This document shows positions 13,023-59,552 of a DNA stretch of 64,000 nucleotides, piece after piece (position 1 is the first letter of the stretch; each line of letters begins with the position of its first letter). The position numbers and the translations under genes are program-made. A model generated the notes under the pieces. It ran no database searches, was not told where the DNA came from, and saw only the letters and a program-made list of their open reading frames with translations. Source of the DNA: Actinomycetota bacterium (lineage in GTDB: Bacteria > Actinomycetota > Acidimicrobiia > IMCC26256 > JAENVU01); assembly GCA_016870395.1 (NCBI GenBank), contig VGBT01000007.1:17268-81267 (forward strand), in the 5' to 3' direction.

Positions 13023-13093
13023 CCAGGAGGCGCTGGCGCCGGTCGGTGACCGGACCCGCAACGACGGGCGCCGGAGCCGACCATCGAAGGAGG
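13023..13093 (+). repeat. Dispersed 63-bp hairpin element, copy 1 (intergenic)
   Basis: CCAGGAGGCGCTGGCGCC-(22 nt)-GACGGGCGCCGGAGCCGACCATCG then AAGGAGG; matches 37572-37642 with the same spacing. Confidence 0.8.
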
Positions 13094-35369: not shown

Positions 35370-36620
35370 CTAGCCCGCGAGCGATCCGAAGAGGCGAACC
35401 CAGTCCTCGAGCTCGCGGGTCGATAGGAAGTTCTGCCGGACGTGCTCCTTGCCTGCCATACCCATCTCGTCGGCGCGGTCTGGGTTCGCGAGCAGCTCGA
35501 TCGTGCGTCGCGCGCACGACTCGACCGAGTCGACCAGGTAGCCGTCGAGGCCGTCGCGGATCTGGAGCTCGATGCCGCCGGCGCGACCGCCGATCACGGG
35601 CCGGCCCTTCCAGAGACCCTCCGCCACGGTGAGACCGAAGCCCTCCCGCAACGACTTCTGCACCACGACGTCGGCCGCCCGCTGGAACGCGTTGATCTGC
35701 ACGTTGCCGACCTGCTGGATGTTTGACAGCAGATGGATGTCGCGGTCCTGCCCGCGCGCCTCCTCGACTTGCTCCCAGACTCGGAAGCACTCGGGATCGT
35801 CAGTGGCCATCGAGCCCGCGAGCACGAGCTGGGCGTCGGGCACCTCGTCGCGCACGATGCGGAACGCCTCGATCACGCCGACCGGGTCCTTCCACGGGTC
35901 GTATCGGCTGACCTGGCACATGATCGGGCGTGTGGTGTCGATCCCGTACTGCTTGCAGATCTCGGTGACGAAGGGATCGTGGAGGTCGAGGTTCTTCACC
36001 GACAGCGGGTCGATGCACGGCGGTGCGACGACAACGCGCTCGGTGCCGAGCGATGCCGGGACGAACTCGGGCATCGTCCACACCGAGGCGTCATACTGTT
36101 CGACATGGGGAAGGAAGAACTCCCATATGTCTGCGCGCGCATCGGTGAGATCGATGTGACAGCGCCAGATCCAGTGGGTGCCCGGCCGGTTGACGCCCGA
36201 GTAGCCAACGAACGTGAGCAACGCGGCCGGCTGCGGGTCGTGGACGACCACGTAGTCCCAGCTGTCCTCGAGGAGCAGGGCGTTGTCGAGGACCTTCTCC
36301 AGGTACACCTTCTGCATGTCGTGGTTCCACGGCACGTCGGCGCCCTGCAGAGCGTTGTGCACCGCCTTCGTGACGGCGAAGAACTCGTCGCTGCCGTGGA
36401 TCACCTGCCACTCGGCCTCGATGCCCAAGCTGCGCAGGAGGGGCACATGGGTCGCCAGCAGCTCGGCGACGCCACCGCCGTAGGCCGTGGCGTTGACGTG
36501 CAAAATCCGGGCACCGCGCAGTGGCTCGGCCAGCGCGCGAATCCGCTCGACGGTGTCGGCGCCCGCGACCCCTTCGTAGTCGGCGAGGTCCTTCTCGAGC
36601 AGGGGGACGCGTTCGAGCAC
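35370..36620 (-). CDS. treT: Glycosyltransferring trehalose synthase (GT4)
   Basis: HVNATAYGGGVAELL, TKAVHNALQG, HDPQPA, WRCHID, SRYDPWKDP, EGFGLTVAEGLWK; GTG 36620 with GAGGA RBS. Confidence 0.9.
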   Translation of the reverse strand: MLERVPLLEKDLADYEGVAGADTVERIRALAEPLRGARILHVNATAYGGGVAELLATHVPLLRSLGIEAEWQVIHGSDEFFAVTKAVHNALQGADVPWNHDMQKVYLEKVLDNALLLEDSWDYVVVHDPQPAALLTFVGYSGVNRPGTHWIWRCHIDLTDARADIWEFFLPHVEQYDASVWTMPEFVPASLGTERVVVAPPCIDPLSVKNLDLHDPFVTEICKQYGIDTTRPIMCQVSRYDPWKDPVGVIEAFRIVRDEVPDAQLVLAGSMATDDPECFRVWEQVEEARGQDRDIHLLSNIQQVGNVQINAFQRAADVVVQKSLREGFGLTVAEGLWKGRPVIGGRAGGIELQIRDGLDGYLVDSVESCARRTIELLANPDRADEMGMAGKEHVRQNFLSTRELEDWVRLFGSLAG

Positions 36621-36678: not shown

Positions 36679-37779
36679 GTGATCGGCCGCGCTGTTGCCT
36701 GTCCTGACAAGTTTCGCTCCTCGTTGACCGCAGCCGAGGCCGCGGCCGCGATCGCCCGGGGCCTGCGAACGGCAGGCTTCTCCGAGGTCGTGGAGCTTCC
36801 CCTAGCCGACGGGGGCGAGGGAACGCTCGACGCACTGGTTGCCGCGAAGGGCGGTTCGCGCCGTACGACCAGGGTCGCCGGCCCGCTGGGCGACCCGGTC
36901 GACGCCGAGTGGGCCGTCCTGGCCGACGGCACCGGGGTCGTGGAGATGGCGCGGGCCAGCGGGCGTGCCCTCGTCACCGGAAGGCCCGATCCTCTCAAGG
37001 CCAGTACCCGTGGCACCGGGGAGCTGATCGCGGCTGCGGCTCGGGCGGGCGTACGGCGGATCGTCGTCGGGGTCGGCGGCAGCGCGACCACCGATGGTGG
37101 CCTCGCCGCGGTGGAGGCGCTCGGCTGGTCGCTCGCCGGACTCGACGTGGTGGTCGCGTGCGACGACGTCGGAACCGCGTTCACGGCCTCGGCCGAGGTC
37201 TACGGTCCGCAAAAGGGTGCCTCGGCCGCGCAGGTGGCTCTGCTGACGCGTCGCCTCGAGCAGCTTGCCGCGTTGTATCGCGACCGCACCGGCGTCGACG
37301 TGACGACGCTGGAGGGAGCCGGGGCCGCGGGCGGGCTTGCCGGTGGACTGGCTGCGATCGGCGCGCGTCTCGAGCCCGGCTTCGACGTCGTCGCACACGC
37401 CGCGGGTCTCGAGTTCGAGCTCGAAGGTGCTGAGCTCGTCGTCACCGGGGAGGGCAAGCTCGACGCGACCAGCTTCGCGGGCAAGGTGGCCGGCAGCGTG
37501 CTCGCATGGGCGAACGACCTCGGCGTGCCGCACCGAGCGGTCATCGCGGGCCAAGTCACCGAGGAGGGCCGCCAGGAGGCGCAGGCGTCCACCTCGGCCC
37601 AGGATGGAGCAGACGGGCGCCGGAGCCGACCATCGGAGGAAGCGAGCGTGCTGGGCGATGTGCTCGTTCTCGCGCTGACCGATCGCGTGTGGCAGGCGGG
37701 CGAAGCGTTTTCACGCGCCGCGACGCTCGTCGAGGAGTCGGCGATCGAGGCGGGCCGCCGCGCGCTGGGTCTCGACTGA
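36679..37779 (+). CDS. glxK: Glycerate kinase (GlxK family) carrying an in-frame 21-codon insertion
   Basis: CPDKFRSSL, PLADGGEGT, STRGTGEL, GGSATTDGG, GAGAAGGL, VTGEGKLD. Confidence 0.9.
   Translation: MIGRAVACPDKFRSSLTAAEAAAAIARGLRTAGFSEVVELPLADGGEGTLDALVAAKGGSRRTTRVAGPLGDPVDAEWAVLADGTGVVEMARASGRALVTGRPDPLKASTRGTGELIAAAARAGVRRIVVGVGGSATTDGGLAAVEALGWSLAGLDVVVACDDVGTAFTASAEVYGPQKGASAAQVALLTRRLEQLAALYRDRTGVDVTTLEGAGAAGGLAGGLAAIGARLEPGFDVVAHAAGLEFELEGAELVVTGEGKLDATSFAGKVAGSVLAWANDLGVPHRAVIAGQVTEEGRQEAQASTSAQDGADGRRSRPSEEASVLGDVLVLALTDRVWQAGEAFSRAATLVEESAIEAGRRALGLD
37572..37642 (+). repeat. Dispersed 63-bp hairpin element, copy 2 (inside glycerate kinase CDS)
   Basis: CCAGGAGGCGCAGGCGTC-(22 nt)-GACGGGCGCCGGAGCCGACCATCG then GAGGAAG; 24-nt exact match to 13063-13086. 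Confidence 0.8.
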
Positions 37780-37787
37780 AGCGAGGG

Positions 37788-38717
37788 CTACGCGCTGAGA
37801 CCGCGACCGGCGCGGTAGCCGGCGATGGTCGCGGCGGGTGGCCGCTCGCGGACCTCGATGGTCATCGCCTCGGGCTCGTAGCCCTCGGCGAAGCGGCGGA
37901 GCTCGGCGTGCTCGGCAGGGACGCGATCGAACCCGGCCCGTCGCAGCGCGGTGACGAGGATCGCGGTCGCTTGGGGACCCAGGTCTTCGAGCGGGCGGTT
38001 GCGGTGCTCGCGCACGCCGAGATCGACCTGCGCGGTAGCTCCGAGCCCGAAGCGCTCGACCACGTCGATCAGCATGCCGAGCTCCACGCCCCAACCCTCT
38101 ACGAACGGGACGGACTCGAGGACGTCGCGTCGTCCCGCGTACTCACCGGCGAGGGGCTGGACGAAGCGGACGAGCTGGGGGAACAGCACCGAGATCAGCG
38201 GTCGGGCCACCAGCTCGGTGACTCTCCCACCGCCGTGGGGCTCGGCGTGCAGCGGTCGCTCGTAGAAGCCCTTGACGAACCCGACCTCCGGCGCGGTCAG
38301 CAGTGGGCCGAGGAGCCCGGTGACGAAGTGCGGTCCGAAGTTGCGGATGTCGGCGTCGACCCAGCAGATCACCTCGCCTCGGGAGACGTGCAGCGACTTC
38401 CACATCGCGTTGCCCTTGCCGGAACCGGGCCCGGCCTCGGGGAGCACGTCGGCCTCGGCGAACACGCGGGCGCCCTCCCACGTGGCGACCTCGGCGGTGC
38501 TGTCGGTCGAGCCGTCGTCGATCACGACGACCTCGTCCACCAGGGGCACGGCCTCCATCAGGGTGCGGCGCACGGTCGCGACGATGTGCCCTACTGTGGC
38601 CTCCTCGTCCCGGGCGGGCAGGCACACCGACACCCGGGAACCCGTGCGGGCTTTCGCGGCGGCGAGGTGCTCCGGGTCGAAGGCGTCGTGGCGCCAGGGC
38701 ACGGGGAGGAGCTGCAC
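37788..38717 (-). CDS. gpgS: Glucosyl-3-phosphoglycerate synthase
   Basis: VCLPARDE, DDGSTD, GKGNAMWKSL, WVDAD, GGRVTELVARP, QPLAGEYAG, WGVELG, REHRNRPL; start taken at GTG 38717. Confidence 0.9.
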   Translation of the reverse strand: MQLLPVPWRHDAFDPEHLAAAKARTGSRVSVCLPARDEEATVGHIVATVRRTLMEAVPLVDEVVVIDDGSTDSTAEVATWEGARVFAEADVLPEAGPGSGKGNAMWKSLHVSRGEVICWVDADIRNFGPHFVTGLLGPLLTAPEVGFVKGFYERPLHAEPHGGGRVTELVARPLISVLFPQLVRFVQPLAGEYAGRRDVLESVPFVEGWGVELGMLIDVVERFGLGATAQVDLGVREHRNRPLEDLGPQATAILVTALRRAGFDRVPAEHAELRRFAEGYEPEAMTIEVRERPPAATIAGYRAGRGLSA

Positions 38718-38793
38718 GACCGGCCAGCGTAGGCGGCCCGCCGTTCCTGGTTCGCCCCGGTGGGCGGCGCGGCCTACACTGCTCGGCAACGCG

Positions 38794-38886
38794 CTCATCC
38801 AGAGCGGCCGAGGGACGGGCCCGACGACGCCGCGGCAACCAGCACTCCGGGTAACCGGGGCCAGGTGCCAATGCCCGAACGATGAG
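38794..38886 (+). ncRNA. SAM-I (S-box) riboswitch aptamer
   Basis: P1 CTCATC/GATGAG, ATCCAGAG, GAGGGACGGGCCC, CGGCAACC and GGTGCCAAT consensus blocks in order. Confidence 0.9.
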
Positions 38887-39023
38887 AGAGCCCCGCAGCG
38901 TGGGCCACCGGTCTCCGGTCCTCCGCTCGAGGCGCTCGACCAATGGCGAGCGCGCCGAGCAGGGCAGCCGTGGGCGACCACCCGGGAAGTGGTGGGCGAC
39001 CACCTGGACACAGGAGCACTGAC

Positions 39024-40262
39024 ATGGCCCATGTGGACTCGTTGCGGTGTCGGGAGTGCGGCCGTACCTACGACGTCGCGCCGATCTACACGTGTGAGTG
39101 GTGCTTCGGCCCGCTCGAGTGCGCGTACGACTACGACGCGATCGCCGGCGCGATCAGCCGCGAGAAGATCGCGGCGGGCCCGCCGAGCATCTGGCGGTAC
39201 GCCGATCTCCTGCCCGTCGACCGGAACCCGGCGGTCGATCTCGGTGCCGGGTACTCGCCACTCGTGCGCGCCGACCGGCTCGCCGCGGAGCTCGGCCTCG
39301 GTGAGGTCTGGATCAAGAACGACACGACCAACCCCACGAACTCGTTCAAGGACCGGGTCACCTCGGTGGCGCTCTCGAAGGCGCTCGAGTTCGGCTTCAA
39401 GGTGGCAGCCTGCGCGTCTACCGGCAACCTGGCCAACGCAGTCGCGGCGCACGCCGCGCACGCGGGTCTGCGCAGCTTCGTGTTCGTCCCGGCGAACCTC
39501 GAGGCCGGCAAGATCGTCACCACGGCGGTGTACGGCGGCAACGTCGTCGCGATCGACGGCAATTACGACGACGTGAACCGCCTGTGCGCTGAGCTCGCGG
39601 GCACCTATCCGTGGGCGTTCGTCAACGTGAACGTCCGTACGTACTACGCGGAGGGCTCCAAGACGCTCGCCTACGAGACCGCCGAGCAGCTGGGCTGGGA
39701 GGTCCCCGACCACGTCGTCGTTCCTGTTGCCAGCGGCTCGCTGCTCACCAAGATCCGCAAGGGCTTCGACGAGCTGCACAAAGTCGGCCTGCTCGATGCC
39801 GAGCCCGAGGTGCGGGTGAGCGGTGCACAGGCCCTGGGCTGCTCGCCGGTCGCGGGCGCGTGGCTCGAGCAGATTGACACGATCAAGCCGGTGAAGCCCG
39901 ACACGATCGCCAAGTCGCTCGCGATCGGGAACCCCGCCGACGGCTACTTCGCGCTCGACGCCGTCCGCCAGACGGGTGGGGGGTTCGCCGCGGTCACCGA
40001 CGACGAGGTCGTCGAGGCGATCAGGCTCCTCGCACGGACCGAGGGCATCTTCGCCGAGACGGCAGGGGGCGTGACGATCGCCACCCTCAAGCATCTCGCC
40101 GAGCAGGGGGTCGTGCGGTCCGACGAGCGCGTGGTCGCGTACGTCACCGGCCACGGACTCAAGACGCTCGACGCCGTCCAGGACGTGGTCGGCCCGACCG
40201 CGACCATCGCCCCCAACCTCGACGCGTTTCACGCGGCGTTCGACCGGGAGGACCTCGCCTGA
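39024..40262 (+). CDS. thrC: Threonine synthase-like PLP enzyme with N-terminal Zn ribbon
   Basis: CRECG..CEWC, NPTNSFKDR PLP lysine, ASTGNLA, EGSKT, SLAIGNPADG, VTGHGLK; exact function may differ (see findings). Confidence 0.88.
   Translation: MAHVDSLRCRECGRTYDVAPIYTCEWCFGPLECAYDYDAIAGAISREKIAAGPPSIWRYADLLPVDRNPAVDLGAGYSPLVRADRLAAELGLGEVWIKNDTTNPTNSFKDRVTSVALSKALEFGFKVAACASTGNLANAVAAHAAHAGLRSFVFVPANLEAGKIVTTAVYGGNVVAIDGNYDDVNRLCAELAGTYPWAFVNVNVRTYYAEGSKTLAYETAEQLGWEVPDHVVVPVASGSLLTKIRKGFDELHKVGLLDAEPEVRVSGAQALGCSPVAGAWLEQIDTIKPVKPDTIAKSLAIGNPADGYFALDAVRQTGGGFAAVTDDEVVEAIRLLARTEGIFAETAGGVTIATLKHLAEQGVVRSDERVVAYVTGHGLKTLDAVQDVVGPTATIAPNLDAFHAAFDREDLA

Positions 40263-57883: not shown

Positions 57884-59552
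<1,669 letters not shown>

Follow-up and report, generated by a model that had tools for sequence, protein, structure and literature searches.

A probable repeat-derived insertion in the glycerate kinase of an uncultured Acidimicrobiia bacterium, and the family of gene-junction repeats to which it belongs

Introduction

REP/BIME elements follow stop codons, are frequently arranged in inverted pairs and require a Y1 (RAYT) transposase. As summarized in PMC12548453, MIRUs (Supply et al. 1997, Mol Microbiol 26:991) are short, co-oriented units, both dispersed and in tandem, found at the start codons of gene junctions. The same source describes that the stop codon of the MIRU ORF overlaps the downstream start codon at -4 (NTGA), and that because of this design, the insertion of a unit hardly disturbs expression. 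According to the account given in PMC10969869, Rickettsia palindromic elements (RPEs; Ogata et al. 2000, Science 290:347, and 2002) are approximately 100-150 bp long, mostly palindromic and MITE-like, and in some RPE families, about half of the copies are intragenic. ERIC-type intragenic units of Gammaproteobacteria (Delihas 2007, PMC2759123) are MITE-like elements of 100-170 bp with terminal inverted repeats, which are normally intergenic and sometimes generate in-frame gene fusions giving new peptide segments.

The stretch of DNA analysed here (64,000 nt, hereafter called the window) belongs to the metagenome-assembled genome (MAG) of an uncultured member of the Acidimicrobiia, in the Actinomycetota. 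An initial sequence-only reading had proposed that the glycerate kinase gene of this bacterium harbours a repeat-derived protein insertion comparable to those caused by RPEs. Our analyses make it highly probable that this insert is one unit of a lineage-specific repeat with Shine-Dalgarno (SD)-like sequences and a hairpin, and that it represents a real, tolerated, repeat-derived protein insertion, RPE-like in its outcome and MIRU-like in its kind.

Results

An in-frame insert of 21 codons in glxK

The gene of interest, glxK, is a 366-codon ORF of the forward strand (36679-37779), whose product matches the Pfam Gly_kinase signature (PF02595) over its full length, with an E value of 1.7e-83. It is flanked by a divergent gene for a TreT-like GT1 glycosyltransferase on one side and by a convergent GT2 gene on the other. 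glxK is therefore alone on its strand, and the repeat unit is not at a gene junction here. The features of the locus are as follows.

36679..37779, + strand: glxK, class-I glycerate kinase, 366 aa; Pfam PF02595; PDB homologues 3CWC and 1TO6
37573..37635, + strand: insert, 63 nt, 21 codons, residues 299-319, QEAQASTSAQDGADGRRSRPS, one repeat unit, in family frame f1
37573..37581, + strand: left border CAGGAGGCG, SD-like 5' end of the unit
37584..37590, + strand: 5' arm of the insert hairpin, GGCGTCC, with one U.G wobble in the glxK copy
37615..37621, + strand: 3' arm of the insert hairpin, GGGCGCC, partner in the family hairpin
37622..37633, + strand: insert core GGAGCCGACCAT, more conserved across the copies than any other block and identical in the L039 lineage (see below)
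37636..37644, + strand: right border GAGGAAGCG, putative original target
37648..37650, + strand: in-frame GTG (Val324), 5-6 nt past the SD-like GGAGGAA, a spacing that corresponds to the family norm; with the border, it makes up a mimic of a translation-initiation region
Predicted tryptic peptides across the insert junctions: QEAQASTSAQDGADGR and SRPSEEASVLGDVLVLALTDR

As the initial reading had it, the element lies in frame within the Gly_kinase ORF, as its 63 nt correspond to 21 codons, and the residues surrounding it are ...QVTEEGR-QEAQASTSAQDGADGRRSRPS-EEASVLG.... The imperfect duplication that had been noted at its borders was found as well, in the form of the 9-mers CAGGAGGCG (37573-37581) and GAGGAAGCG (37636-37644). 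Within glxK, the reading frame of the unit is f1 (GAG GAG GCG CAG GCG ... CGC CGG AGC CGA CCA TCG GAG GA). This frame, which codes for EEAQA...GRRSRPSEE, is free of stop codons in the family consensus, and frame f0 has a TGA codon in the loop of many copies. With a length of 63 nt and no stop codon in f1, the unit thus adds 21 residues to GlxK.

A six-frame search identified GlxK in 39 of 40 related genomes, and in most of them, the match stops around residue 301 and restarts around residue 319. We aligned the window protein with 17 orthologues, 2 from the same genus, 10 from the same family and 5 from the same order. The position of the gap was set by this 18-sequence protein alignment; a MAFFT alignment of the DNA sequences put it in the wrong place. 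All 17 aligned orthologues show a clean gap over exactly the inserted residues, with aligned flanks (...AR/EEASVLGDVQVLALTDRVW... and R/EEASVLG), i.e., a 21-residue gap at the predicted site. None of the repeat-free orthologues has an alignable segment at the position of the insert. Because the latter is also a bona fide unit of a repeat family, as detailed below, it qualifies as a repeat-derived in-frame protein insertion. In a set of 5.8 billion proteins, the 120 best homologues of GlxK are usually approximately 340-350 aa long, and among them, extra length is found only in the window protein and in one relative 91% identical to it (P0002).

An AlphaFold2 (AF2) model based on the 18-sequence alignment has a mean pLDDT of 87.8 and a pTM of 0.86. 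Its only long stretch with pLDDT values below 50 comprises residues 306-325, between a helix (residues 295-303) and a strand (residues 328-332). In this model, the helix continues into residues encoded by the unit (QEAQA), which mimic the EEAS present originally. The insert is thus predicted to form a disordered loop approximately 45 residues from the C-terminus of GlxK; judging from pLDDT and secondary structure, the model has a low-confidence loop at this position. The invariant LALTDRVW block follows the insert; residues L333, D335, R336 and V337 are invariant in the 18-sequence alignment. The alignments of GlxK with its PDB homologues 3CWC and 1TO6 end around residue 295, and hence the insert cannot be mapped onto a solved structure by sequence.

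The insert belongs to a family of short hairpin units

Exact and 3-mismatch searches of the window with the whole 63-mer gave no match besides itself. The family first became visible through its 3' core, as a 29-nt stretch with 97% identity at positions 13063-13091 of the window, and a dozen BLAST-level matches to the 3' part of the insert were found in the genome. Iterated nhmmer searches of the genome (2.98 Mb) yielded 41 copies with E<0.01, or approximately 50 copies when variants are counted; the family consensus is GGAGGAGGCGCAGGCGCCCACGGGTGACGACGGCCGACACGGCCGGCGCCGGAGCCGACCATCGGAGGAGGA. The glxK copy has an E value of 1.7e-10 with nhmmer and scores 67.3 bits (E value of 9e-13) with the covariance model. 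A search of the genome for the core with up to 2 mismatches yielded mostly chance matches in coding DNA and was useful for the variants at C5, C20, C2:39174 and C78 (C numbers denote contigs of the MAG). Further copies in the window are as follows.

13025..13093, + strand: canonical intergenic copy upstream of a gene for an NAD-dependent epimerase, with its end 8 nt from the ATG (13102)
59172..59207 (C7:76439-76474), + strand: partial copy consisting of core and SD only, directly before an ATGA start

The unit, of 63-66 nt, comprises from 5' to 3' an SD-like sequence (GGAGGAGGCG), a stem arm (yAGG(C/T)GCC(C)), a loop of 25-30 variable bases, the partner arm ((G)GGC(G/A)CC), the core GGAGCCGACCAT and the SD sequence GGAGGA. 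The core is the invariant or most conserved block among the aligned copies. The ends of the unit are SD-like direct repeats (GGAGGAGG...GGAGGAGG) and not inverted ones, and the SD-like 5' variant found at the left border in glxK, CCAGGAGGCG, is also present in three other copies. Tandem arrays were identified with periods of 66 nt (C22, C51, C12 and C8), 36 nt (C5) and 58 nt (C20), and an intergenic array of C2 has a period of 68 nt.

The unit harbours 7+3 conserved base pairs, with a variable, unpaired loop. Columns 13-19 of the alignment pair with columns 47-53, 87.9% of the cells being paired; if the partner is shifted by 1-3 columns, the proportion falls to 33-51%. The hairpin arms covary: at columns 15 and 51, 15 copies have C-G, 14 have U-A and one has U-G, and independent double changes are found at the column pair 18-48 and at the outer pair 8-58. 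The C/T-G/A split at 15-51 may correspond to two subfamilies rather than to many independent events. Approximately 3 U.G/G.U wobble cells were counted versus 3 C.A cells, so that wobble pairs favour neither RNA over DNA nor either of the strands. When the glxK copy was folded within its mRNA by minimum free energy, the family hairpin was not recovered, and the stability was no better than that of shuffled sequences (z=0.37). As context folding is uninformative, the evidence for the hairpin is its covariation. Rfam 15 gave no match at gathering score at the window sites, the best permissive matches (E value of approximately 0.3) being to unrelated families.

The units are usually located at gene junctions

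Twenty-eight of the 41 copies end at most 13 nt from the start codon of an ORF that is 60 or more codons long and shows the GC signature of coding DNA, and the remainder are mostly internal units of arrays. The -4 overlap between a TGA codon and the next start codon (NTGA) is present in 16 of these 28 junction copies, compared with a background of 27.7% calculated over 1630 SD-supported starts of the same genome (binomial p=0.001). At C7:9185, C2:101923, C68:7797, C12 and C2:161361, the upstream ORF is open through the whole unit and stops at the -4 TGA. Elsewhere, the 5' end of the unit provides a stop codon (GAG GAG GCG TAG), often with a GTG codon immediately thereafter. At junctions, the unit thus duplicates the SD sequence directly before the start codon, and it is traversed either by the upstream ORF or by a mini-ORF within the unit, ending on a TGA that overlaps the next start (NTGA, -4).

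A junction that we call tmk-like could be compared in its filled and empty states. When filled, the upstream protein ends with ...PS-EEEAQAPSVDPGLDGGRRSRPSEESL followed by the stop codon, and the downstream gene starts at GTGA. The latter probably codes for a thymidylate kinase, as judged from its N-terminal GRF(I/V)VLEGGDG motif. The empty junctions of relatives, in which the tail is missing, read GGCGGAGGCGAGCGGATGA (G003) and GAGGAATCGTGA (G002). SD sequences of the GGAGGCGAGCG type are present in both empty sites compared, that of glxK and that of the tmk-like junction. As expected of MIRU-like junction repeats, the comparison of filled and empty sites at these two loci indicates that insertion of a unit at an SD sequence and start codon causes little disturbance.

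In addition to GlxK, at least four other proteins make use of frame f1. C-terminal tails in this frame are found at C7:9185, at C2:101923 (EEAKALTVDGGRADERRSRSFQEEPA and stop codon) and at C68:7797 (EEAQAPGTDDGPAGGRRSRPSKKGA and stop codon). In a WecA/MraY-family transferase (C5:10269-11600), three loop-less mini-units of 36 nt encode three successive GEEAQARRSGPS sequences in the C-terminal tail, and the orthologues, including those of both same-genus genomes, stop aligning before this array. In total, one mid-gene copy and approximately five C-terminal tail fusions were found among the approximately 41-50 copies.

The units located within ORFs are 36, 63 or 66 nt long. We considered the possibility that all units are multiples of three, which is refuted by the intergenic periods of 68 (C2) and 58 nt (C20). 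In-ORF units are divisible by three and intergenic ones not always, a pattern that seems to reflect a survivorship filter and not an inherent trait of the family.

The probable target site in glxK

The empty glxK site of relatives reads CGC/GAGGAGGCG/AGC GTG in G008, with GAAGAGGCG in G006 and GAGGAGGCC in G012. This ancestral-type site, GAGGAGG-CGAGC-GTG, consists of an SD-like sequence, a 5-nt spacer and an in-frame GTG, and it is nearly identical to the empty tmk-like junction. On the basis of these two loci, it would be this resemblance to a translation-initiation region that led the unit into glxK. With 218 occurrences of GAGGAGGCG in the genome, the 9-mer alone cannot explain the targeting, and additional target features or strong selection against most intragenic matches have to be assumed.

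In the filled glxK gene, a 9-mer is present on both sides of the insert (cAGGAGGCG ... GAGGAaGCG). Since three other copies start with the same sequence as the left 9-mer, the latter may belong to the unit and the right 9-mer to the target. The 9-nt border repeat is indistinguishable from the unit's own ends, and it may have arisen by target duplication at a staggered cut or by microhomology or recombination at GGAGG-type ends. We propose the following scenario. In an ancestor of this species, one unit would have entered glxK at an internal start-like site (GAGGAGG, 5 nt, GTG), after which the enzyme would have stayed functional and the insertion become fixed. The likeliest routes of mobilisation would be microhomology or recombination at GGAGG-type ends, or an enzyme acting in trans.

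No mobilising enzyme was identified in the genome. A RAYT search yielded no PF01797 match in this genome (G000), and 6 of 14 control genomes were positive.

The family is nearly restricted to one lineage

A search for a 16-nt core pattern gave 22 matches in this genome versus 0-2 in each of 40 relatives, and it is absent from two same-genus genomes. The covariance model R1 gave weak matches only, in 6 of 300 other Acidimicrobiia genomes. In a distant genome, G315, a tandem array with a different hairpin harbours the same core-plus-SD sequence (GGAGTCGACCATCAGAGGAGGAG), so that the core may characterise a larger superfamily. We also scanned 185,579 species genomes with an 18-nt core; the matches listed were scattered single ones in unrelated GC-rich genomes and say little about the distribution of the family. 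Judging from the core pattern and the covariance model, the family appears to be almost confined to this Acidimicrobiia genome, or to one species-level lineage. No description of such a repeat family in Acidimicrobiia was found in the searchable literature.

Authenticity and age of the insertion

The identical 366-aa protein is encoded on four further contigs, of up to 120 kb, from independent Logan/ENA assemblies. In addition, a contig from another sample (L039, SRR29054603) codes for a 91%-identical GlxK with ...ARALAQAPTVAEGAADGRRSRPSEEEVGVMG... at the same position. The loop of the L039 insert is homologous to that of the window and unlike those of the other copies, which suggests that the insertion took place once, in a common ancestor. 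It is younger than the split from G001 and G002, two genomes of the same genus that are devoid of the insert, and older than approximately 10% nucleotide divergence.

Outside of the insert, the window and L039 genes differ at 4.7, 3.0 and 22.8% of the first, second and third codon positions, respectively. This strong purifying selection indicates that glxK is not a pseudogene and, together with the intact reading frame, suggests that the insert is translated. Within the insert, the 5' 36 nt harbour 10 changes, all of them at codon positions 1 and 2. Seven residues differ in the first 12 insert codons, arguing that there is no constraint at the protein level in this part. In contrast, the 3' 27 nt, which correspond to the family core, are the same in both lineages, as is the GGAGGA that follows. 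All 21 third positions of the insert are unchanged, with a probability of approximately 0.004 at the flanking rate according to our own arithmetic on two lineages. We attribute these unchanged third positions to constraint or gene conversion on the core, plus the small sample, and offer no further explanation. The insert loop is probably tolerated rather than useful.

Discussion

MIRUs have the following features in common with the units reported here: short length, dispersed and tandem copies, co-orientation, location at start codons, NTGA coupling and an Actinomycetota host. In contrast with MIRUs, the family is found in the Acidimicrobiia, in an uncultured MAG, and its units combine a covarying hairpin with direct repeats of SD type at the two ends. 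It is also nearly confined to one species-level lineage, and the mid-gene position of the glxK copy is not the norm for MIRUs. Sequence homology to the MIRU consensus types I-III is unlikely given the different host class and the lineage-specific core, and the likeness would be one of design.

The glxK case resembles RPEs in that a selfish repeat lies in frame in an unrelated metabolic gene, with a recurrent peptide and one preferred frame, at a position compatible with the fold and in a host gene that is still functional. Unlike RPEs, the unit is 63 nt long (63-66 nt in the family), with a short stem, direct ends and a home at gene junctions, and only one copy is mid-gene. The comparison made in the initial reading thus stands with respect to a repeat-derived in-frame protein insertion, but the element is not a palindromic MITE and its intragenic insertion, with a single mid-gene copy, is exceptional. 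Like ERIC-type units, it is a small intergenic repeat with occasional in-frame fusions, but ERIC-type units do not have the SD-plus-start design. REP/BIME elements are likewise short, hairpin-forming, multi-copy repeats at gene boundaries, whereas the units described here are co-oriented with, and directly upstream of, the downstream gene.

Two further classifications were rejected. The unit is not a MITE, as its ends are SD-like direct repeats rather than terminal inverted repeats, and a REP/RAYT system does not fit a genome devoid of PF01797 matches.

Alternative explanations of the insert have to be weighed against its origin as a tolerated repeat unit. A chimeric join through a repeat might occur in a MAG of 97 contigs, several of which end in repeat arrays (C22 and C51), but the identical protein on four further contigs, the orthologous insert in the same place in the independent L039 sample and the collinearity of both insert flanks with the orthologues make the chance of an assembly or binning artefact negligible. 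The segment might also have arisen locally, by slippage or duplication of the GAGGAGGCG region followed by drift, its likeness to the family being coincidental or due to GC-rich low complexity. The border 9-mers do form an imperfect direct repeat, and in this very GC-rich genome, short chance matches to the core are common. However, the match to the family is full-length (67 bits, E value of 9e-13), 29 nt are 97% identical to positions 13063-13091, the hairpin arms and core are in the canonical register, and a 9-nt duplication cannot yield 45 intervening family-specific bases. A local origin is therefore extremely improbable and effectively refuted.

The insert might have been kept for a function, either as a basic, Ser/Pro-rich surface module (DGRRSRPSEE) or through the core, SD and GTG acting in the glxK mRNA. 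Examples of the latter would be an internal initiation site or an RNA-protein binding site. A function would account for the identity of the 3' 27 nt and GGAGGA between the window and L039 even though synonymous sites elsewhere differ by approximately 22%, and for the absence of changes at the 21 third positions; the occurrence of the f1 peptide in at least four other proteins and the same core with a different hairpin in the distant G315 are also in its favour. Nevertheless, the same block is conserved in all copies, translated or not, and in three frames, and this is better explained by gene conversion among the copies, or by a property of the element itself as DNA or RNA, than by a role specific to GlxK. 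Moreover, the sample is tiny (27 nt in two lineages), an ORF starting from the internal GTG would have only 43 residues, and all other orthologues work without the segment. We thus regard a function in glxK as unlikely and favour a repeat-derived insertion that the enzyme tolerates.

Repeat-derived in-frame insertions are an event of a known kind, and the modest additional value of this one is that it exposes the likely target of the element. It represents a clean, datable case of a selfish repeat within a working enzyme, outside of Rickettsia and enterobacteria. As the intragenic site resembles a ribosome-binding site with its start codon, the event can be viewed as a natural off-target experiment for a MIRU-type element, and the site provides direct sequence evidence on the targets that such elements recognise. 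One might go further and speculate that the unit is a mobile element that recognises GGAGG-spacer-start sites and is built for translation, with its stop-free frame f1 and its lengths of 36, 63 or 66 nt within ORFs, and that its occasional off-target insertions in coding DNA generate new disordered protein segments, with glxK as the first mid-gene example; the core would then have been under nucleotide-level selection as an active recognition or conversion site over the approximately 10% divergence. We consider this extended model doubtful.

In one genome, at least five proteins have gained disordered tails or loops from this family, which has a bearing on the origin of low-complexity segments. 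With respect to annotation, such inserts can pass for errors or pseudogenes in MAGs.

Substitutions in the glxK insert

The 63-nt insert in the glycerate kinase gene glxK (window 37573-37635) was compared with its orthologue in L039 (positions 2165-2230), a contig from SRR29054603 representing a lineage with a 91% identical GlxK. The two inserts differ by 10 substitutions, which are confined to codon positions 1 and 2 and leave all 21 third positions unchanged, a pattern opposite to that of the remainder of glxK, where divergence between the two sequences is 4.7, 3.0 and 22.8% at codon positions 1, 2 and 3, respectively. The 3' 27 nt of the insert show no difference. We suspect that constraint or gene conversion acting on the core underlies this pattern.

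Outside the window, at C5:11420-11530 of the same genome, three loop-less 36-nt mini-units of sequence GGAGGAGGCGCAGGCGCGCCGGAGCGGACCGTCGGG occur in tandem. They are read in the frame of the glxK insert and yield the peptide GEEAQARRSGPS three times over, within the tail at the C-terminus of a transferase of the WecA/MraY family; alignment with transferase orthologues ends ahead of them.

Distribution of the core

Two variant repeat families have the core in common with the main family:
C20:11688-11817, (-) strand, 58-nt tandem unit GGAGGTAGAGGCGTAGCCGGAGCGAGCCGAAGTGCGAGCGCAGGCGGAGCCGACCAGA
C5:82708, unit with GGAGGCGCAGCGGCGCC...GCGGAGCCGACCATGAGAGT inside

Neither was picked up by the HMM search of this genome, which gave 41 copies, and the superfamily is therefore larger than 41 copies. 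In G315, an Acidimicrobiia genome of the same order and another family, a tandem array of approximately 65-nt units begins directly 3' of a stop codon on contig C5 (L042, positions 1437-1625). Its units differ from the window's family in their internal hairpin and are identical in the 3' core plus SD (GGAGTCGACCATCAGAGGAGGAG), suggesting that the core is more ancient and more widely spread than the hairpin.

In the window's genome, the contig ends C22:1-190 and C51:1-120 both fall within arrays of the main family's 66-nt repeat, identical to each other. The assembly is broken by these arrays, and C22 and C51 are probably neighbours in the genome.

Genetic environment of glxK

The following features lie near glxK:
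35373-36602, (-) strand, TreT-type trehalose synthase homologue, flanking glxK
37791-38780, (-) strand, GT2 glycosyltransferase, flanking glxK
38792-38888, (+) strand, SAM riboswitch (RF00162, 66 bits)

Together with glxK, the TreT-type and GT2 genes may constitute a compatible-solute (glycoside) gene neighbourhood. The ORF downstream of the riboswitch (38943-40262) looks like a PLP-dependent threonine-synthase-type enzyme, a candidate assignment judged by its sequence.
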